Of a stretch of DNA of 20,000 bases, positions 3 to 18,190 are shown piece after piece. Below the pieces are notes generated by a model. It did not search any database and was not told the DNA's origin. It saw only the letters and a list, made by a program, of their open reading frames with translations. The stretch lies in the IMG/VR virus record IMGVR_UViG_3300025502_000012; one strand, written 5' to 3'. Position 1 is the stretch's first letter. Each line of letters opens with the position of its first letter. Both the position numbers and the translations under genes were made by a program. This DNA is from an uncultured virus (IMG/VR IMGVR_UViG_3300025502_000012) (lineage: Duplodnaviria; Heunggongvirae; Uroviricota; Caudoviricetes).

Positions 3-833
3 ATCAATACCTGGTATGACACCAATGTGTTGATTTTTTACATAAAAGAATAATGGTCTACTTATTGGATAAGAACCATCTTGTATTGATTCTAAAGATA
101 TTTCTACATCTTCAATTGTATGTGCTTGAACTTTATCCATTGAGTTATCGTAATAAGAGAAACCAAAAATACCAAAGTATTGTGGCTCACCTACTAACTT
201 GTTAATAATCAAAGTATCGTTTTCACCCACTTCAATAACTGGTCCATCTTCTCTTAAAAGATAACAAGCCTTTTTACCTTTTTCTTTTAAGATTTCTTCT
301 GGACAACCTTTTTTCATCACTAGACTATTCCAAGCATCTCTTGTACCAGATGTTGCTGGTGGAGTTAGAATTGCTATTTTATAGTCTGGTAAACTAGGAT
401 CAATATCTGACCATTTAGTTGGTCTAGGACCTAAGTCAGCCATTGCTTCCCATAAGTGTTTTTTTGTAAAGTTATATTCTTTACCTTTTACAGAACTTGT
501 AAATGCGATACCATCTAATCCTACTATAACTTCAGTAATATCTGTGACACCATTATTTTTACAAAGTTTTATTTCTTTTGATTTGATCTTTCTACTTGCG
601 TTTGACATATCGGGTGTGTTTACTCCGATACCAGCACAAAATAATTTCATACCACCACCAGTACCTGTAGATTCAATTACAGGTGTTTTAAACTTTCCTG
701 ACTTACCAAATCTTTCTGCTACAACTGTTGAAAATGGATATACGGTAGAACTACCAACTATATTAATTTGATCTCTTGCTTGTGCTGTTATTGTCATCAA
801 AGACATTATAAAAGCGATTACTAATAATCTCAT
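3..833 (-). CDS. pstS: Phosphate ABC transporter substrate-binding protein PstS (3' end runs off the window)
   Basis: Hand translation from ATG at 833 (AGGAGA SD upstream): MRLLVIAFIMSLMTITAQA-RDQINIVGSSTVYPFSTVVAERFGK...ESTGTGGGMKLFCAGIG...NASRKIK. Signal peptide plus GSSTV and TGTGGG motifs of alphaproteobacterial-type PstS. Absent from the ORF track because it is truncated. Confidence 0.95.
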   Translation of the reverse strand, partial: MRLLVIAFIMSLMTITAQARDQINIVGSSTVYPFSTVVAERFGKSGKFKTPVIESTGTGGGMKLFCAGIGVNTPDMSNASRKIKSKEIKLCKNNGVTDITEVIVGLDGIAFTSSVKGKEYNFTKKHLWEAMADLGPRPTKWSDIDPSLPDYKIAILTPPATSGTRDAWNSLVMKKGCPEEILKEKGKKACYLLREDGPVIEVGENDTLIINKLVGEPQYFGIFGFSYYDNSMDKVQAHTIEDVEISLESIQDGSYPISRPLFFYVKNQHIGVIPGID

Positions 834-2533: not shown

Positions 2534-3109
2534 CTACACTATAACGCTACAATTAAACGCTAAGGATATTCTATCGCTATCAGAATTGTTTGTCATCACT
2601 CTGTGTGTCAAAAAAGACGGAAACAATATTAACTCATTAGCAATTGGATTGTATTCATAATCAATGGTATTGTACGGCGTGTAATTATCTACTACATTCT
2701 TACCAAAGAACATATCAAACATAGAAATCGGATTTGTAAAAACAATACCACCACTCCCTTTAGGAACACTTAAATAGAACACACCAGAGATTAACGACAA
2801 TGGGTGTCTGTGAGCTATATTATAAGAACCAGGAGGATTAATGTTAATCCATAAATTGTCTATCTTTGTAGGCATTTTCATTCCAAGTCTTTGACAATAC
2901 GCATTACAAGTATAATCAATATCTTTAAACAATTCATTTAACGGAAGATGAGCGCCGGTTAGTATTTGACTTTGATAACCACCATCATTAGATACGACAA
3001 CACTTGGATTGTTTCGTTTGTATTGAAGGACATAATCAATCATAGATTTGTTATCCAGATGATCAAACACTGTGTTGTATAATGGGGTTTTAAATATGTC
3101 TTGTATCAT
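2534..3109 (-). CDS. 2OG-Fe(II) oxygenase (TIGR02466-like)
   Basis: WININPPGSYNIAHRHPLSLISGVFY...LILFPSFLTHRV...RISLAFN (HxH...H...R). The start is more likely the ATG at 3109 (MIQDIFKTP) than 3130, because both promoters lie over or next to 3117-3145. Confidence 0.9.
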   Translation of the reverse strand: MIQDIFKTPLYNTVFDHLDNKSMIDYVLQYKRNNPSVVVSNDGGYQSQILTGAHLPLNELFKDIDYTCNAYCQRLGMKMPTKIDNLWININPPGSYNIAHRHPLSLISGVFYLSVPKGSGGIVFTNPISMFDMFFGKNVVDNYTPYNTIDYEYNPIANELILFPSFLTHRVMTNNSDSDRISLAFNCSVIV

Positions 3110-3116
3110 GTCGTCT

Positions 3117-3145
3117 ATTGTATCATACATTATTTATAAAGTCAA
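3117..3145 (-). promoter_or_regulatory. Extended -10 sigma70 promoter with nested late promoter
   Basis: TTGACT (3145-3140), 17 bp, TG-A-TACAAT (-10 at 3122-3117); TATAAATA at 3138-3131 in the spacer. Confidence 0.75.
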
Positions 3146-3176: not shown

Positions 3177-3218
3177 ACGACTTCAAAAATACCCTACAAA
3201 AACAATGCAAATAAACCA

Positions 3219-3247
3219 TTGACATTCCACCGAATCTATGTTATACT
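3219..3247 (+). promoter_or_regulatory. Strong early sigma70 promoter
   Basis: TTGACA (3219-3224), 17 bp, TG-T-TATACT (-10 at 3242-3247); A-tracts upstream; AAGGAG SD at 3261-3266. Confidence 0.9.
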
Positions 3248-3274
3248 AAATGAATAACCAAAGGAGAAAACACT

Positions 3275-3445
3275 ATGATAAAAAACACTATAACAAAACA
3301 ATCACTATTTAATACATTTAAGACTTTAAATGATAATAAATCAAAGATATCGTTTCTAACGAAAATGAAGAATCTTAAATCATCTACAAATAAGTTGAAA
3401 CATTTAGATATCAATTTTGATAATCTAATTAAACTATACTCATAA
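3275..3445 (+). CDS. Small basic early protein (56 aa)
   Basis: MIKNTITKQSLFNTFKTLNDNKSKISFLTKMKNLKSSTNKLKHLDINFDNLIKLYS; strong SD directly after the promoter; below the ORF-track cutoff. Confidence 0.85.
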   Translation: MIKNTITKQSLFNTFKTLNDNKSKISFLTKMKNLKSSTNKLKHLDINFDNLIKLYS

Positions 3446-3469
3446 ACTAACAAAGAGAGAAAACACACT

Positions 3470-3919
3470 ATGAAATATAATAGAAACTTAAACCTTGATA
3501 TTGATAATAACGATTATTATTATAGAATCAACAAAAACAAAAACAATCATATCGTACAACAAAAAGTAGACAGACCACAATATCTAAAAGATGATATAAT
3601 GAGATTATCAACAAATGAGTCACTTGATACGATTAGTGAAGTGTCGCCAGTTGTAGTTGATAATTGTTTAGAAGAATTTAAAAGACAAAATTTTAAAGAA
3701 GTAGTATCTTTAGTATTGTCTTCTTTAAGACCACATGAAGAAAGAGTATTGCGTTTACGATTCGGTATAAACACAGAAGAACATACCTTAGAAGAAGTCG
3801 GCGTGAAGTTTCATTTAACAAGAGATCGAATTAGACAAATAGAAGCGAAAGCGTTAAGAAAGTTAAAACACCCTTCTCGTTCTAAAGAATTGAAAGACTT
3901 TCTATCTCAATGTTTATAG
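3470..3919 (+). CDS. Stand-alone sigma70 region-4 (RpoD C-terminal HTH) protein
   Basis: [63 protein letters not shown] closely matches RpoD region 4; only 149 aa, with no region 1.2/2. Confidence 0.92.
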
Positions 3920-4000
3920 TCTAAAAAATATACTCGAAAAAAATTCAATATAAAGACTAAGCAATGAGCCGGAGATTGAGCGCCACCTTAATAGTACGAG

Positions 4001-4033: not shown

Positions 4034-4101
4034 TGTTATTACATTTATAGATTAGAAATAGCAACAGCTTTCATAAAGGCCTTTTCTATATACTGAGCAA
4101 T

Positions 4102-5178
4102 CTAAGGATTTAAATCTATTGTAGAGCCTCGGTGTGTGACACCACCAGTAGTATTGGAAGTCTTTGTTCCTTCTATTGTTTCTGTTGTATTGCCGGCTAC
4201 TTCTACCGTATAGTTCCCACCAACTTTTAAATTGTAGTCACCGCCGGCATTCATATTAATCTTTCCTTGTACTGTGTGTATATTAACATCGCCACTGTCT
4301 ACTTGTATATTAATGGAAGCGCCGGCTCCTATCTGTATATCATAGTGATTGTCCGTTGTATTACTCTTATTGATAAACAGCTTATGTCTGCCATCTATTG
4401 TAATGTCTGATTGGCCAGCGATTGCTATTCTTTTGTTAGCACTCATTAGCTCATACGAATCACCTTTGATTATCTCAATCTTATTGCCATCCTTGTCTAT
4501 CTCATATGATGTTCCTGTTCTATGGCTCTCGTGTATTCTCTCATTGCCGCTGGTGTCATCAAATTCTCTTATATGTCCACTCTCACTTTCATAGACATGA
4601 TTGTATGGATAATGCGCAGCATACGGTATCGCTGGCTGGTCAAATGTGTCACCATCAGACGAAACAGCATCAGAGCCATCGGCGTTGACAAAGGCGTTAA
4701 AGTCAGCTGTGGCTATCCCAGTTAATCGTGTTGATTGTCGTAATGTTAAAGATAGATGTGGATTGTCCTCATTGTTCACAGCTAATCTATTGACATCAGG
4801 TTCTTGTTTGTATTTGGGATAGATACCATTCGGGTCATAGAATCCACCAGCTTGCGACAGCTCCGATGGCTTCCCTGGTAAAGAACCAAGGACCAATGGC
4901 TCTTGCTTATTGTTCCCATCTCTAAAGTATCCAAACACCCAAGAGCCTTCTACTAGACCTAATGGCGTTTGACCTAATCCACTTATACCTGAACTTGTAA
5001 TAGGAAGAACAACTTGCGCCCATGGTAAATCAGCTGTAGGAAGAATACTTTGATTGCTTGTGTGATGGCCAAGTGCTCTCACTCTTACTCTGCCTGCGAA
5101 CTCCGGGTCTTGTCTATTCTCTACAACGCCAACGAACCACAGAAAACCATTGTGTCCTATAAATTTGTCATTAATCAT
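4102..5178 (-). CDS. gp5: Baseplate hub/needle protein gp5 (no lysozyme domain)
   Basis: WFVGVVENRQDPEFAGRVRVRALGHH...LPWA OB-fold; YPYNHVYESESGHIREFDDT; C-terminal VxG beta-helix repeats ending IDLNP. Confidence 0.95.
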   Translation of the reverse strand: MINDKFIGHNGFLWFVGVVENRQDPEFAGRVRVRALGHHTSNQSILPTADLPWAQVVLPITSSGISGLGQTPLGLVEGSWVFGYFRDGNNKQEPLVLGSLPGKPSELSQAGGFYDPNGIYPKYKQEPDVNRLAVNNEDNPHLSLTLRQSTRLTGIATADFNAFVNADGSDAVSSDGDTFDQPAIPYAAHYPYNHVYESESGHIREFDDTSGNERIHESHRTGTSYEIDKDGNKIEIIKGDSYELMSANKRIAIAGQSDITIDGRHKLFINKSNTTDNHYDIQIGAGASINIQVDSGDVNIHTVQGKINMNAGGDYNLKVGGNYTVEVAGNTTETIEGTKTSNTTGGVTHRGSTIDLNP

Positions 5179-5603: not shown

Positions 5604-7078
5604 TATACCTCATCTCCTTGGTCTTTAAGTATATTATCGTCTAAATCGTATTGTAATATGTTTAATCTGTCTTTGTTGTTTCTTTCTGACAGTGTATCTA
5701 AATCTTCTTCTGGATATGAATCCTTAACTGCGTCTTTAATCATCTCTATGTTCATCGCATGGTAATCGTTTACTGTGTCTATGCTATGTCTGATTGATTT
5801 GACTAGGTATCTGCCAGATAGAAAAGGGTCGTTATCGTAGGGATTATCTCTTCCCATTGGCTCGTATGCTGGCATTTCAAACGCAACTAAATCACCACAT
5901 GAAATACCAGTAAATCCTGGGACATCTATTGATATGTTCATTGTTTCAAATGACAGTCTTTGTGATAATCGTTTTGGTGTGGTCTCGTGGTAATTTGGCA
6001 TCTCTGCGTTGTTATGTATATTACTTGTATCACTTAAAAAGTATAATGTGCCTTCGGGAAAATCACTAAATGACTTACCTTGTTTGTAATTAAACAGTGG
6101 CAGTATACCTTTGCCATCTGTCTTACTTCCTTGTCCATCATGTTCTGTATGAAATGCTTTAGGATACTCTGTTAGATAATCAAAATCTGTTTCTTTAAAT
6201 GTCTTGTTGAAATTGTCATGTGATACGACTTTACTGTTATAGATACCGTTTCTTAAATTCTTTAGTGTATCAAATTGACTGTTGATTTGAAAGCCTTTAA
6301 CTGTCTGCATCTCTTTTACAACTTGTCTATTGCCTGTTTCATCTCTTATGTTTGCCGGTGTAGGACGATACAGCGCCACTACTGGTCGTGCTGTTGTATC
6401 TGTACTCGCCAACATACTCTCATATGATTTAAAGTGAAATCCAAGTGCGTTTTCAAAGAACATCATACCTGGTGTGTGATGTTTCTTACTTTCTGCTGAC
6501 TTACAAAACAAATCCAATGTTTCAAAGGGTCGTATTCTTGGTATGACAAATTTACGAATACCTTTTGTTTCTTCTAAAATTAATGTCTTGTCACTGTCTA
6601 AATTGTTTCTGACTACTTTCAATACATTATTGTCTATGCTGTCTTCAAATGCGTTCTTTACTTTGACTTGTTCATTTGTAATCATTTCTTTACTTGCGAA
6701 GTTAAGTACATAGATTTGAGTACGAGGATTTAATCCTTGTCTATTTGAAATCTTGTAGATATGCATTGGGTGACCTGTGGCTGTGGTAAAGTCATATGCT
6801 CTACTTGTTCCAGGTGTAAACAACTTAAATTCTATTTGTTCAAAGCCAGTTAGTGGTAAGTGATTGGGAACATTCTGTGCGTCTGTTAAGACAATGTTGC
6901 CTGATAGAGTTTTGTTTGTAATACTTTCATATACATTCAACTCAGTCACAAGCGACCTTACACTTATTCTTTTAGGTTTGTTTTGACCTTCTGACGATTG
7001 GTATGAAACTAACTGGACATCTGATAAAGAATATTGTCCAGCTCTGTTTAGTTGTTCTGTGTTAATATCATTGTACAT
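5603..7078 (-). CDS. Baseplate hub protein (gp27-like)
   Basis: 491 aa between gp53 and gp5; ELNVYESI...SGNIVLTD, FFENALGFHFKS, VPG...GD, LSGRYLVKSIRH motifs typical of gp27/gpD/VgrG-type hubs. Confidence 0.75.
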   Translation of the reverse strand: MYNDINTEQLNRAGQYSLSDVQLVSYQSSEGQNKPKRISVRSLVTELNVYESITNKTLSGNIVLTDAQNVPNHLPLTGFEQIEFKLFTPGTSRAYDFTTATGHPMHIYKISNRQGLNPRTQIYVLNFASKEMITNEQVKVKNAFEDSIDNNVLKVVRNNLDSDKTLILEETKGIRKFVIPRIRPFETLDLFCKSAESKKHHTPGMMFFENALGFHFKSYESMLASTDTTARPVVALYRPTPANIRDETGNRQVVKEMQTVKGFQINSQFDTLKNLRNGIYNSKVVSHDNFNKTFKETDFDYLTEYPKAFHTEHDGQGSKTDGKGILPLFNYKQGKSFSDFPEGTLYFLSDTSNIHNNAEMPNYHETTPKRLSQRLSFETMNISIDVPGFTGISCGDLVAFEMPAYEPMGRDNPYDNDPFLSGRYLVKSIRHSIDTVNDYHAMNIEMIKDAVKDSYPEEDLDTLSERNNKDRLNILQYDLDDNILKDQGDEV

Positions 7079-11971: not shown

Positions 11972-12958
11972 TTATAAATTTAACGGTGGTATTTTAAATG
12001 GTGGGAATACTCTTCCACCAGTTATTCTACCGATTGGCGCTCTTCTTCTTAAATCGTTAAGAACATCACGCCCTGCTCTTCTCAATTCTGGTGGTAGTCT
12101 TCCTAATAATCCACCAAATAGTCCACCTGCTGTTTTTACTTCAGGTGTTCCAAATTCTGATTGACCTAAGTCTATTTGACCTGCTTTGTCAATAAAGTAA
12201 TTAACCCAATATCTAAATCCAAATGTCACTTGGAAAGTTTGTACATTGTTGTTTTCATGTGAAAATTCAACTGCACTAATATTTTTTGGATAACAATCAA
12301 ATAGTTTAACTGCATATGTTATATCATCACGCTCTTGTCTGCTAGCAAAACTTCCTAACGCAAATATATTCATATCAGATACATAATTGTCGTAATAGTT
12401 TTTATTAAATGATGTTGTACTAAATGCTGCTTGTTGCCATAACTCAAAGTATGATCTTTCTCTCATAAACTTATCCAAGTAAAATGTTGCAGTTATATCT
12501 GCTGAGTTAAAATCTACTACATGACTTCTAGCTGGAGAATTTCCATGTCTAATTTCTTTTGTCACCACTTCTCTATTTGGCATAGCTATTTCAGCACAAA
12601 ATGCTCTAACTCTTTTACCATTCGCATTGTGTACTGCTTGTAATTCTTCTGACAATTTAAATGCTTCTATTCCTTCGCCAGTTCCTTTAACATTAACAGC
12701 TGTATCTTCACCACCAACACCTCCACCAAAAGATAATCCTCTTGGTAAGAAAAATTCTGTATAAAATCTTGCCTTACGAGCAAAGCCTTCAGCTTCATTT
12801 ACATAAGCTTGAAATCTACCCATAGTAGTTTCAGGATTACCACCAGCTTTCTGTCTTAATCTTGGATCTCGTTCTACATTGTCAAGTGAGCGATCTCTGG
12901 GTATACCTACTCGTATGTCGTATCCACCAATTCTTTTTCCTCCTCGTAAGATAGCTAT
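11972..12958 (-). CDS. gp54: Baseplate tail-tube initiator gp54 (tail-tube fold)
   Basis: ITATFYLDKFMRERSYFELWQ...YYDNYV...YAVKLFDCYPKNISAVEFS...FQVTFGFRYW. The frame is open 45 codons upstream of ATG 12823 to an ATA at 12958 preceded by AAGGGGG; exact start uncertain. Confidence 0.8.
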   Translation of the reverse strand: MAILRGGKRIGGYDIRVGIPRDRSLDNVERDPRLRQKAGGNPETTMGRFQAYVNEAEGFARKARFYTEFFLPRGLSFGGGVGGEDTAVNVKGTGEGIEAFKLSEELQAVHNANGKRVRAFCAEIAMPNREVVTKEIRHGNSPARSHVVDFNSADITATFYLDKFMRERSYFELWQQAAFSTTSFNKNYYDNYVSDMNIFALGSFASRQERDDITYAVKLFDCYPKNISAVEFSHENNNVQTFQVTFGFRYWVNYFIDKAGQIDLGQSEFGTPEVKTAGGLFGGLLGRLPPELRRAGRDVLNDLRRRAPIGRITGGRVFPPFKIPPLNL

Positions 12959-13488
12959 AGCTGTATCCCCCTTTCGACTCTCCAGTATTTTCTAGCAGTC
13001 GGTCTGCTTATATTTAAATCTTTACACATTTCTATTAAACTCTTATAAACTTTTCCTTTATAAATTCTTTCTTTGGCACCTATACCTAATTTGCCATACA
13101 TATGATTTCCTTCACCTGACATCTTTTCTGATGTATTTAATCTCTTTGCTCTTTCTATTGCGCTCTTACTCATATTCTCTTTCCACTCTTGTGTGAAAGT
13201 TCTTGTTGAACCTATCGCAACTGGTGTTTTTATTCCACCTGGCATAATATTGTAATAACCATACTTCTTAATATATTTATCTTCTTGTTCAAACGCATCA
13301 CTACCCTCATATATGGTTTTGACACTAAAATTCTCTTTGCCATATTTTCTTATAGCATTATGTAAAGGCCACTTCGCACCACTTCTAGCAGTTCCCAAAT
13401 GACATCTAAATCTTTTCATCATAGGTTGCGATGTAAATCCAACATAACTGTGGCTATTTAATTCGTTTGTAATCTTATATACTATCAT
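12955..13488 (-). mobile_element. Free-standing GIY-YIG homing endonuclease (Seg-like)
   Basis: IVYKITN...SYVGFT...KRF..H...LHNAIRKYGKENF...E...YN catalytic domain, a NUMOD3-like MSGEGNHMYGK motif and a C-terminal HTH (YKSLIEMCKDLNISRPT). Confidence 0.9.
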
Positions 13489-15105: not shown

Positions 15106-15273
15106 TTATTTATAAGACTTCTCTCTTTGTTCTACCCACTTTTTTAGACTTTTTGATTTCGCCTGTTCGTTGTAAGCAGATTTAGGTAAAGACTTTCTTA
15201 TTTTATATGCTTTATATCGTTCTATCAATTCTATAATCTTGTCTAAAGATTTGTATATAATTCTATCTAACAT
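15106..15273 (-). CDS. Small basic hypothetical protein (55 aa)
   Basis: MLDRIIYKSLDKIIELIERYKAYKIRKSLPKSAYNEQAKSKSLKKWVEQREKSYK; GAGGG SD directly after the promoter. Confidence 0.7.
   Translation of the reverse strand: MLDRIIYKSLDKIIELIERYKAYKIRKSLPKSAYNEQAKSKSLKKWVEQREKSYK
15107..15114 (-). promoter_or_regulatory. T4-type late promoter upstream of gp32
   Basis: Exact TATAAATA followed by an A-rich leader and AAGGAG SD. Confidence 0.7.
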
Positions 15274-15282
15274 ATTACCCTC

Positions 15283-15311
15283 ATTATACCATATTATTGA
15301 TCATTTGTCAA
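15283..15311 (-). promoter_or_regulatory. Consensus sigma70 promoter (copy 1 of the 29-bp repeat)
   Basis: TTGACA, 17 bp, TG-G-TATAAT. Confidence 0.9.
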
Positions 15312-16169: not shown

Positions 16170-16423
16170 TCTTTTTCCCTCGTTATTAAATTATCTGGCT
16201 TATCAATTGGTTGTCCCATTCTATTAAACCATTTAGTATTAGCATGATAGACATGGTTTAAAGTACCATCAGCGTTCTTAATAGACTTCTTATCTATCTT
16301 ACCTTCATACTCCTTACCATTCTTCAATATTAGATTAAGATGTCCATATAAGTCACAATATAATCTATCAACAGCTTCACCATTTGGTCCAATCTTATTA
16401 CTCTCTGGTATAGTATTACTCAA
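16166..16423 (-). CDS. Hypothetical protein (85 aa)
   Basis: Co-oriented and overlaps both neighbours. Confidence 0.75.
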   Translation of the reverse strand: MSNTIPESNKIGPNGEAVDRLYCDLYGHLNLILKNGKEYEGKIDKKSIKNADGTLNHVYHANTKWFNRMGQPIDKPDNLITREKE

Positions 16424-17069
16424 TGTTCAACTCCAACTTTGTGACTTTCTTTTCTTGTCCTATACCACCAGTGACAAAATAGTTAGCACCAACTATGTAT
16501 CTTTGAAAATCACTATCGTTTGGAGTTGTCATATGTTCCATATGACCTGGTATAATAACAATATCACCTGTCTTAACTTTACAATTAAAACTCGTACTGT
16601 TAAATATGTTTCTATTAGTCTTGTAATTAAAATCTAAATTCCACTTTTCTTCTATAAAATTATTTCTAGTTGTTAATACTAAATCGCCACTATAACATCT
16701 AGCATAATATACTACACTAAAAATACAATTCTTGTGGTCATGTGGTGGGTGTGAGTTGCCTCTTGTAGTTTTTGCTGCCCAACTCGCTGACATAGTAAAT
16801 TTATTAAACATACCTAACACTTCATCTACATAAAAATTCTTATGTTTTTCAAAAACATTTTCTAACTCTTTAAAGTCATAGTCTTTGAAAAGCTTTTGTG
16901 AATTAGATACGACAGATATTTTTTTTCTATGTTCATCAAAATCCTCTGAGGGTGGATAAAACCATTCTACTTCTTTTAGTCTTTCAAACTCTTTTGTATC
17001 CATAACATAATCAGTATGAGTATGATATAGTGGAGTAGAAAATAATGGTATGATACTATTTGGATTCAT
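16416..17069 (-). CDS. 2OG-Fe(II) oxygenase (TIGR02466-like)
   Basis: PLFSTP...SWAAKT...HPPHDHKNCIFSVVYY...GDIVIIPGHMEH...RYIVGANYF. Confidence 0.88.
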   Translation of the reverse strand: MNPNSIIPLFSTPLYHTHTDYVMDTKEFERLKEVEWFYPPSEDFDEHRKKISVVSNSQKLFKDYDFKELENVFEKHKNFYVDEVLGMFNKFTMSASWAAKTTRGNSHPPHDHKNCIFSVVYYARCYSGDLVLTTRNNFIEEKWNLDFNYKTNRNIFNSTSFNCKVKTGDIVIIPGHMEHMTTPNDSDFQRYIVGANYFVTGGIGQEKKVTKLELNIE

Positions 17070-17674: not shown

Positions 17675-17893
17675 TTAAATTGGTAATATACCACCCTTTG
17701 GAGTGTTTAACAACCTTAAATCAATTGCTTCTACTTGTACTTTTTCTTTTAAACTTTTTGAAACTAAAGATGAAACTGTTCCTGGGTCAATATCGTTTTC
17801 TTCGCAATAATGAAGTATAGCTTCCATGTATGTAGTTCTTTTTTCTTTTACTATCTTCTCAATTTCAAAACTAAACTCTTTACTATTCATCAA
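17675..17893 (-). CDS. gp33: Late transcription coactivator gp33
   Basis: FSFEIEKIV...YMEAILHYCEENDID......VSKSLKEKVQVEA.DLRLL...LPI; upstream of gp59 as in T4. Confidence 0.92.
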   Translation of the reverse strand: MMNSKEFSFEIEKIVKEKRTTYMEAILHYCEENDIDPGTVSSLVSKSLKEKVQVEAIDLRLLNTPKGGILPI

Positions 17894-18161: not shown

Positions 18162-18190
18162 ACTATACCATATTATTGATCATTTGTCAA
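18162..18190 (-). promoter_or_regulatory. sigma70 promoter (copy 2 of the 29-bp repeat)
   Basis: TTGACA, 17 bp, TG-G-TATAGT; spacer identical to the promoter at 15283-15311. Confidence 0.88.

Follow-up and report, generated by a model that had tools for sequence, protein, structure and literature searches.

A predicted early protein of uncultured T4-like marine phages appears to join a virus-specific module to a captured host sigma70 region 4

This report concerns a protein of 149 amino acids (aa), termed ORF149, that is encoded in a short plus-strand operon of an uncultured virus (IMG/VR record IMGVR_UViG_3300025502_000012). The 20,000 nucleotides (nt) of this record which were analysed are called the window. 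ORF149 is probably a functional early protein in which a virus-specific N-terminal module is fused to the captured C-terminus of a host RpoD, i.e. to region 4 of a primary sigma factor. Tentatively, at a probability of about 0.42, we propose that it is a flap-docking surrogate of the host region 4 which alters -35-dependent transcription in phages without AsiA and MotA. The gene is composed as follows:

3470..3919, plus strand: gene of the 149-aa protein ORF149, a new N-terminal module plus sigma70 region 4 (from Pfam, family, fold and the ratio of nonsynonymous to synonymous substitution rates, dN/dS)
3470..3643, plus strand: N-terminal module, residues 1-58, with a DIDNNDYYY motif, a beta-hairpin (16-22/28-34), a helix (37-54) and a flexible linker
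3644..3916, plus strand: sigma region 4, residues 59-149, equivalent to E. coli sigma70 524-613 (end of the 3.2-linker, 4.1, 4.2 and the C-terminal helix H5)
3818..3868, plus strand: recognition helix of the helix-turn-helix, residues 117-133; its base-reading first part is variable in the family, the remainder invariant

In Pfam ORF149 matched only Sigma70_r4 (PF04545; E = 2.8e-15, 56 bits at a cut-off of 24.1; residues 82-134), and neither region 2 nor region 3 was seen. The PHROGs match, over residues 51-146, carries the label 'RNA polymerase sigma factor'. An AlphaFold model (mean predicted local distance difference test score, pLDDT, of 68) shows the hairpin 16-22 plus 28-34 and one helix; residues 41-64 form a disordered linker, and 63-148 fold into five helices with a pLDDT of 77-91. 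Residues 59-149 of the model superpose on residues 524-613 of E. coli sigma70 with a Z-score of 13.4, a root mean square deviation of 1.4-2.5 Å and 48-51% sequence identity. From profile position 62-66 on, and only there, the family profile matched RpoD chains of solved structure, with Caulobacter RpoD at the top (E = 1.6e-36). ORF149 thus has the helix-turn-helix of region 4, lacks region 2 and is not a sigma-70 factor able to initiate; consisting of sigma region 4 only, it cannot start transcription alone. An earlier note on this DNA had said the same, and Pfam and the superposition on sigma70 agree with it. The note had also placed an RpoD region 4 match in the C-terminal part. Its identity was correct, its length was not: about 65 residues had been estimated and about 85-90 were found. 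A prediction of an ORF149 homodimer (alignment A1, two copies) scored 0.00 at a mark of 0.42, which is evidence neither way.

Residues 59-149 are homologous to, and have the same fold as, region 4 of the primary sigma factor RpoD of Alphaproteobacteria, especially of Pelagibacteraceae. Among the best 80 of 600 genome matches all were alphaproteobacterial RpoD, and they aligned only from residues 59-74 through 145-148; no bacterial genome among these 80 aligned to the N-terminus. Identity to alphaproteobacterial RpoD is 64-69% over residues 63-148. Within the same 80 matches, the signature pair GLQF plus SKQLKSFLES was present in 6/6 Pelagibacteraceae and in 0/74 of the other RpoD proteins. ORF149 has the tail SK.LK.FL, which likewise was present in 6/6 Pelagibacteraceae and in 0/74 of the others, and GLQF occurs in some of its relatives. 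One relative, P0073, has a region 4 which equals that of Pelagibacteraceae RpoD at 62 of 63 positions, and its N-terminus fits a diverged subclade (P0097, with a very diverged region 4). Because of the distribution of the signature, the shared tail and the P0073 match, SAR11 is most likely the donor of the domain and the host of the phage. The RpoD-only matches and the tail signature thus bear out the derivation from host RpoD that had been read from the sequence earlier. P0073 would possibly reflect renewed recombination with host rpoD; being a single metagenome contig of 733 nt, it may also be an assembly chimera. Third-position identity to SAR11 rpoD (0.55-0.62) was rejected as evidence for a recent transfer, as it is confounded by a shared AT-rich codon use. 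Compared with RpoD, ORF149 is devoid of regions 1-3 and has a new N-terminus of 58 residues instead, it is a virus-only gene, and its base readers are variable.

Conservation of the N-terminal module equals or exceeds that of region 4. In 132 unique family sequences, a set skewed to relatives of the window which also underlies all residue counts below, D12 is kept in 131, Y16-Y18 in 127 and K40 in 130. One relative, P0122, retains the module together with a region 4 so diverged that it is barely recognisable. Modelled alone, the hairpin reaches a pLDDT of 72-91. With residues 1-75 as the query, 1.84 billion representatives yielded seven proteins of 32-151 aa. Five of these (140-151 aa) have the family architecture, the 82-aa and 32-aa ones look like fragments, and a fusion of the module to other domains was not seen among the 1.84 billion representatives. 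The module has no similarity in PDB or Pfam; a fold search against 48,161 chains gave nothing meaningful (best Z 3.4), and the N-terminal 86 residues had no tblastn match among GenBank phages at E <=10. Kinship with RpoD region 3 was considered and rejected: hhalign against RpoD regions 2.4-3.2 returned a probability of 0.08%. The best matches of residues 1-62 in the ESM Atlas (0.85-0.86), one Sigma70_r3-labelled cluster included, are below the 0.9 line and are unsupported by the profile comparison. By all appearances the module is new and virus-specific and is the hallmark of the family.

ORF149 has matches in at least 120 protein clusters, which come from marine sources and from contigs of up to 153 kb; identity is 63-99% over 71-100% of the query. 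The listed clusters are 106-155 aa long, mostly 144-155 aa. From a scan of viral contigs 80 loci were kept, 13 of them with near-full-length relatives (L002-L010, L020, L021, L024, L073). Over the whole gene dN/dS of eight pairs was 0.16-0.44; the N-terminal part taken separately gave 0.12-0.27 and the C-terminal one 0.11-0.42; an exception was the nearly identical pair L003-L004 with a value of 1.03 at a dS of 0.055. Thus, both halves of ORF149 are evidently under purifying selection.

Other short viral proteins also consist of region 4 behind an N-terminus of their own. L023, L025, L028 and L081 encode proteins of 141-142 aa where complete (L023 is cut at its 5'-end), and further region 4-only open reading frames (ORFs) are those of L073 (143 aa), L035 (120 aa) and L018/L019 (208 aa). 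The group of L025, L028, L081, L023 and L073 shares N-termini of the type MKKY..GID..GLS..DPE.YRKI; L028 is located in a T4-like context, and L073 aligns weakly with ORF149 across the full length (38%). They are like ORF149 in that a new N-terminus precedes an RpoD region 4 and unlike it in that their N-termini differ. The 67-kb record of L018, rated 100% complete, has no Sigma70_r2. In L006 a 98-aa ORF (6420-6716, plus strand) follows right after the family gene; it matches Sigma70_r4 (E = 3.1e-7) and has a different N-terminus, i.e. the locus carries a tandem pair of region 4 genes. In the open-access literature, to the extent that its text was available, no description of such proteins was found. 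The 'sigma70-like (gene 215)' entry in the Melnitz paper was ruled out as a region 4 protein, as Melnitz is without region 4.

The operon lies in a plus-strand island (3219-3919) flanked by minus-strand genes, and every feature first read there was found in place. Upstream of the ORF149 gene it contains:

3219..3247, plus strand: early promoter, TTGACA (3219-3224), 17 nt, TGtTATACT (TATACT at 3242-3247); extended -10 with TG at -15/-14
3261..3277, plus strand: ribosome-binding region and start codon of the 56-aa ORF, AAGGAGAAAACACTATG (from the sequence)
3275..3445, plus strand: lysine-rich 56-aa ORF, accessory leader gene of the operon (from sequence and family)
3454..3472, plus strand: second ribosome-binding region and start codon, of the 149-aa ORF, AGAGAGAAAACACACTATG (from the sequence)

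With a score of 11/12 the promoter belongs to the three best-scoring sites of the window, and all three have the TG. In 500 first-order Markov simulations, which define the chance level, sites of at least 11/12 with TG occurred at a mean of 0.098 and a maximum of 2; none of the 500 reached the three sites of the window. The near-consensus sigma70 promoter described in the earlier note was therefore confirmed, as were the two near-duplicated ribosome-binding regions (GGAGAAAACACTATG for the 56-aa and GAGAGAAAACACACTATG for the 149-aa ORF) and the basic 56-aa protein behind the promoter. In relatives, a site of at least 10/12 is present within 420 nt upstream of the family gene in nine of 12 loci, in seven of these nine with TG. 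The window, L003, L004 and L005 share the same promoter with an identical spacer, CCACCGAATCTATG. The start context AACACTATG is doubled in the operon (3268-3277 and 3463-3472, ahead of each ORF) and is kept at the start of the sigma gene in seven of 12 loci, L003, L004, L005, L007, L009 and L020 included. This context could be a translational operator, or just a favoured initiation region.

With 11 K, 0 R, 3 D and 0 E the product of the 56-aa ORF is basic. It has no match in Pfam and none in PHROG. Relatives were found in 33 protein clusters (71-98% identity), and dN/dS was 0.12-0.16 compared with L003 and L004; to all appearance it is a real gene. In L005, L007, L008 and L073 the promoter precedes the sigma gene by 56-65 nt, a gap without any ORF of at least 45 aa. 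As the 56-aa ORF is restricted to the nearest subclade, it is no obligate partner of the sigma gene.

Contigs from four RNA libraries overlap the ORF149 gene (3494-3612, 3494-3783, 3657-3819 and 3586-3708), and two of these contigs contain a 12-nt insertion known from relatives. They support expression weakly, as RNA libraries may also hold DNA; the contigs say nothing on strand, ends or level, and neighbouring uncovered stretches carry no evidence. DNA runs containing half or more of the words of positions 3200-3930 were labelled salt lake metagenome in 13 of 14 cases and marine metagenome in one.

Which part of region 4 is conserved was examined with E. coli numbering, mapped through the superposition on sigma70 524-613. 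The 4.1 helix (equivalents of E555, E556, R557, R560, R562 and F563) is kept in 130-132 of the 132 sequences. An 11-residue stretch of region 4 is kept in 122-132, ten of its 11 positions in at least 127, and L607 in 128. The positions R584, E585, R588 and Q589, which we take to be the -35 base readers, are the least conserved part of 4.2 in the family. At R584 we counted R 86, G 28, S 12, A 3 and P 2 times, at E585 E 68, D 42 and N 12 times, at R588 R 117 and S 13 times, and at Q589 Q 88, C 16, R 14 and M 14 times; the window protein has R, D, R and Q. Among the alphaproteobacterial RpoD proteins 78 of 80 fit one pattern with a fixed base-reading helix. Because the base readers vary, plain reading of TTGACA is probably not the conserved property of the family. 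In sigma, according to PMC2988021, the surfaces of H1, H2 and H5 contact the beta-flap, and 4.1 and the tail helices serve core binding. The conservation pattern therefore suggests that the family keeps those parts which seat region 4 on the polymerase, while the DNA-reading tips drift or diversify.

These data lead to the proposed surrogate of host region 4. Soon after infection, region 4 of ORF149 would dock on the host RNA polymerase at the tip of the beta-flap, the place where sigma70 region 4 is seated. The N-terminal module would supply affinity or a second contact so that a free domain could compete with the tethered host domain. Docking would remove or change -35 recognition by the holoenzyme. 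Consequently, -35-dependent host promoters would lose out and extended -10 promoters, such as the strong ones of the phage, would stay active; subclades with altered base readers might read new upstream elements. What we infer is the binding to the flap, the competition with the host domain and the influence on promoters. We favour this course of events because of the conservation pattern, the predicted early expression, the extended -10 promoters and the lack of AsiA and MotA in the group. The latter is stated in PMC7029224, and the immunity of extended -10 promoters to AsiA in PMC2988021.

Several points weigh against such a surrogate. To take the flap tip, a free domain has to oust one that is tethered, and the help of the module in this is likewise inferred. 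The strong promoters of the phage have a perfect TTGACA and therefore need not be immune. A gp33 homologue, encoded in the window behind an early-type promoter, requires the same flap tip. The window clade is almost host-like in its base readers (TRDRIRQ vs TRERIRQ), which plain -35 binding fits equally well. A subclade (P0072, P0100, P0120, L008) ends with ...MLQCAA or ...MLNYAA, i.e. it has no equivalents of F610/L611 and a shortened H5. Finally, the gene is missing from the related record G009 and from three cultured relatives, hence it is dispensable for a T4-like programme.

Alternatively, ORF149 might be a free-standing DNA-binding regulator, which we consider unlikely. Its helix-turn-helix would bind -35-like boxes or variants thereof, the module would oligomerise, and the protein would repress or time early, host or its own promoters. 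The helix-turn-helix is indeed intact, and the window clade keeps the equivalents of R584, R586, R588 and Q589 with an exchange of E585 to D. Variation of the readers between clades could mean changed DNA targets; however, these are the very positions which are least conserved in 4.2, with G, S, A or P at R584 in several clades, and the core-binding 4.1 and tail helices remain conserved. The CCACCGAATCTATG spacer, identical in the window, L003, L004 and L005 despite a dS of about 0.4-0.6, could be an operator, yet besides the promoters no repeated operator-like sites were present in the window. In addition, isolated region 4 binds DNA weakly.

Rather improbable is a true domain substitution, in which the phage region 4, anchored by the hairpin, replaces that of the host on the flap, and the diversified readers (R584 to G, S, A or P, Q589 to C, R or M) re-aim the hybrid holoenzyme at clade-specific middle promoters. 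A single protein would then do the work of AsiA plus MotA in abundant marine T4-like phages, which have neither. Recombination with the rpoD of the host may renew region 4 time and again, as possibly seen in P0073.

The question whether ORF149 is the trans-acting region 4 of a split sigma, serving gp55 or an RpoD-like phage sigma without region 4 outside of the fragment, requires a look at the phage. It is an uncultured T4-like marine myophage, of which the window covers a fragment with a G+C content of 33%; the nearest record has 20.8 kb and is an estimated 14% complete. Nearest by tail protein among the cultured phages, albeit distant, are Pelagibacter phage Mosig (32%), HTVC008M (27%) and Methylophilales phage Melnitz (26%). 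Genes for gp5, gp53, gp48, a baseplate hub, a head-closure protein, gp2, gp32, gp59 and a gp33 homologue were identified in the window, further two 2-oxoglutarate (2OG)-Fe(II) oxygenases, a homing endonuclease, pstS and a carbamoyltransferase. Two features bear on late transcription:

17675..17893, minus strand: gp33 homologue, late-transcription coactivator (PHROG 254, E = 1.6e-23; PF16805, E = 3.3e-24)
3131..3138, minus strand: late box TATAAATA of the divergent 2OG-Fe(II) oxygenase gene, with TTGACT alongside (from a motif search)

ORF149 has the end of the 3.2-linker and the whole of region 4, i.e. the part missing in gp55, and with about 14% of the genome sampled there is room for a partner. 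Yet gp33 is encoded in the window, and in the L003 record it is found beside the family gene. The complete cultured phages Mosig, HTVC008M and Melnitz have gp33 in three of three and a Sigma70_r4 in none of three (six-frame search), and in the 21.8 kb of G009, whose tail protein is 48% identical, gp33 was found and a region 4 gene was not. Because gp33 is present where the region 4 gene is missing, the latter is an accessory to an otherwise normal late system of the T4 type. Five exact T4-type late boxes TATAAATA are located on the minus strand of the window (2471, 3131, 8800, 14083 and 15107), just upstream of orf92, the 2OG oxygenase, gp48, gp2 and gp32; this count is not above chance (4.1 expected). 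None of the five has TTGAC at -35 spacing, and the pattern TTGACW-N14-22-TAAATA has no match in the window. The idea that TTGACT upstream of TAAATA supports a split sigma with gp55, which the earlier note had put forward, thus found no support: at the sites concerned, 3145 and 2060 on the minus strand, the two elements are only 3 and 6 nt apart, and gp33, the late boxes and the relatives without region 4 leave the split sigma itself unsupported. Nor was a region 2 partner found. Five viral records, two of them with the family (11% and 13% complete), contained no Sigma70_r2, and no sigma gene was present in 7.6 kb beyond the window. The viral records which carry the family are <=22 kb long and 8-15% complete; scans for larger carrier contigs gave, among the matches listed, only bacterial rpoD (IRQIEAKA pattern) and no family member. 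Taken together, a split sigma is quite unlikely.

Quite unlikely is also a decoy, i.e. a copy of region 4 that absorbs a host binder such as an Rsd-type anti-sigma, an activator or a defence sensor, with the N-terminal module being unrelated. The surface residues K593, R596, K597, K/R599 and H600, presumably the activator-contact patch of sigma70, are invariant in the 132 sequences, and the 62/63 match of P0073 shows that perfect copies of the host domain are tolerated. For T4, Srd and Srh were reportedly once put forward as sigma decoys. On the other hand, SAR11 is not known to offer a candidate target, most clades drift from the host sequence, contrary to what a decoy demands, and the strong conservation of the N-terminus would be left unexplained.

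A non-functional remnant of a captured rpoD fragment, to which the restriction to a C-terminal rpoD piece and the absence from related phages might point, is practically excluded by at least 120 clusters of full-length relatives, dN/dS of 0.16-0.44 over eight pairs, a conserved promoter and start region and the RNA-library contigs that overlap the gene; a decaying fragment, for which the earlier note had allowed, is not what clusters and dN/dS describe.

Some other features of the window may be noted. At its edge pstS (3-833, minus strand) has 77% DNA identity to that of Mosig and is the sole megablast match of the window in GenBank phages. A GIY-YIG-type homing endonuclease gene (12955-13488, minus strand; PHROG 314, E = 2.3e-26) lies between a tail-tube-like gene and gp2. 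At least five paralogues of the 2OG-Fe(II) oxygenase (PHROG 81) are present in about 27 kb, in the window at 2534-3130 and 16416-17069 (both minus strand) and in L267 at 1-543, 547-1146 and 4063-4641. Scans of the window for tRNAs and with Rfam found nothing. A 29-bp consensus promoter, TTGACAAATGATCAATAATATGGTATA(G/A)T, occurs twice on the minus strand (18162-18190 and 15283-15311); one base differs and the flanks are unrelated. The first copy precedes orf69, gp33 and gp59, the second precedes gp32, for which a TATAAATA box is present as well (15107-15114). The pair may be a mobile or duplicated early-promoter cassette.

How does ORF149 relate to known systems? It is a member of the Sigma70_r4 domain family, yet it is no sigma factor, no gp33 and no AsiA. 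The likeness to T4 AsiA, with MotA, concerns the proposed outcome only, an early cancelling or re-aiming of region 4, its flap and -35 contacts. AsiA binds and remodels the host region 4, whereas ORF149 itself is a region 4; the functional likeness is thus putative. A sequence relation to AsiA was not found, since the Pfam scan at E <=0.01, in a library which we take to include the AsiA model, returned Sigma70_r4 only. T4 gp33 (Trans_coact, PF16805) resembles ORF149 as a small phage protein thought to take the flap tip instead of sigma region 4. It is of a different family and fold, ORF149 has no PF16805 match, and the phage has a separate gp33. Moreover, gp33 is not known to bind DNA, whereas ORF149 keeps the helix-turn-helix. 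B. subtilis SigO-RsoA and T4 gp55 with gp33 are two-subunit sigma factors, to which ORF149 would be similar in that sigma functions are split over polypeptides; it differs in the region 2 partner that was not found and in late promoters without a -35 element.

The family represents a widespread and selected early gene which was made from the promoter-reading domain of the host, and it is a candidate for standard assays. Its natural variation at the -35 readers amounts to a ready-made specificity series. If the proposed function is true, this would be a new kind of viral sigma takeover, in which a substitute domain is supplied rather than a binder. ORF149 would then be a counterpart to T4 AsiA (plus MotA), achieved by mimicry, in phages which are without both.

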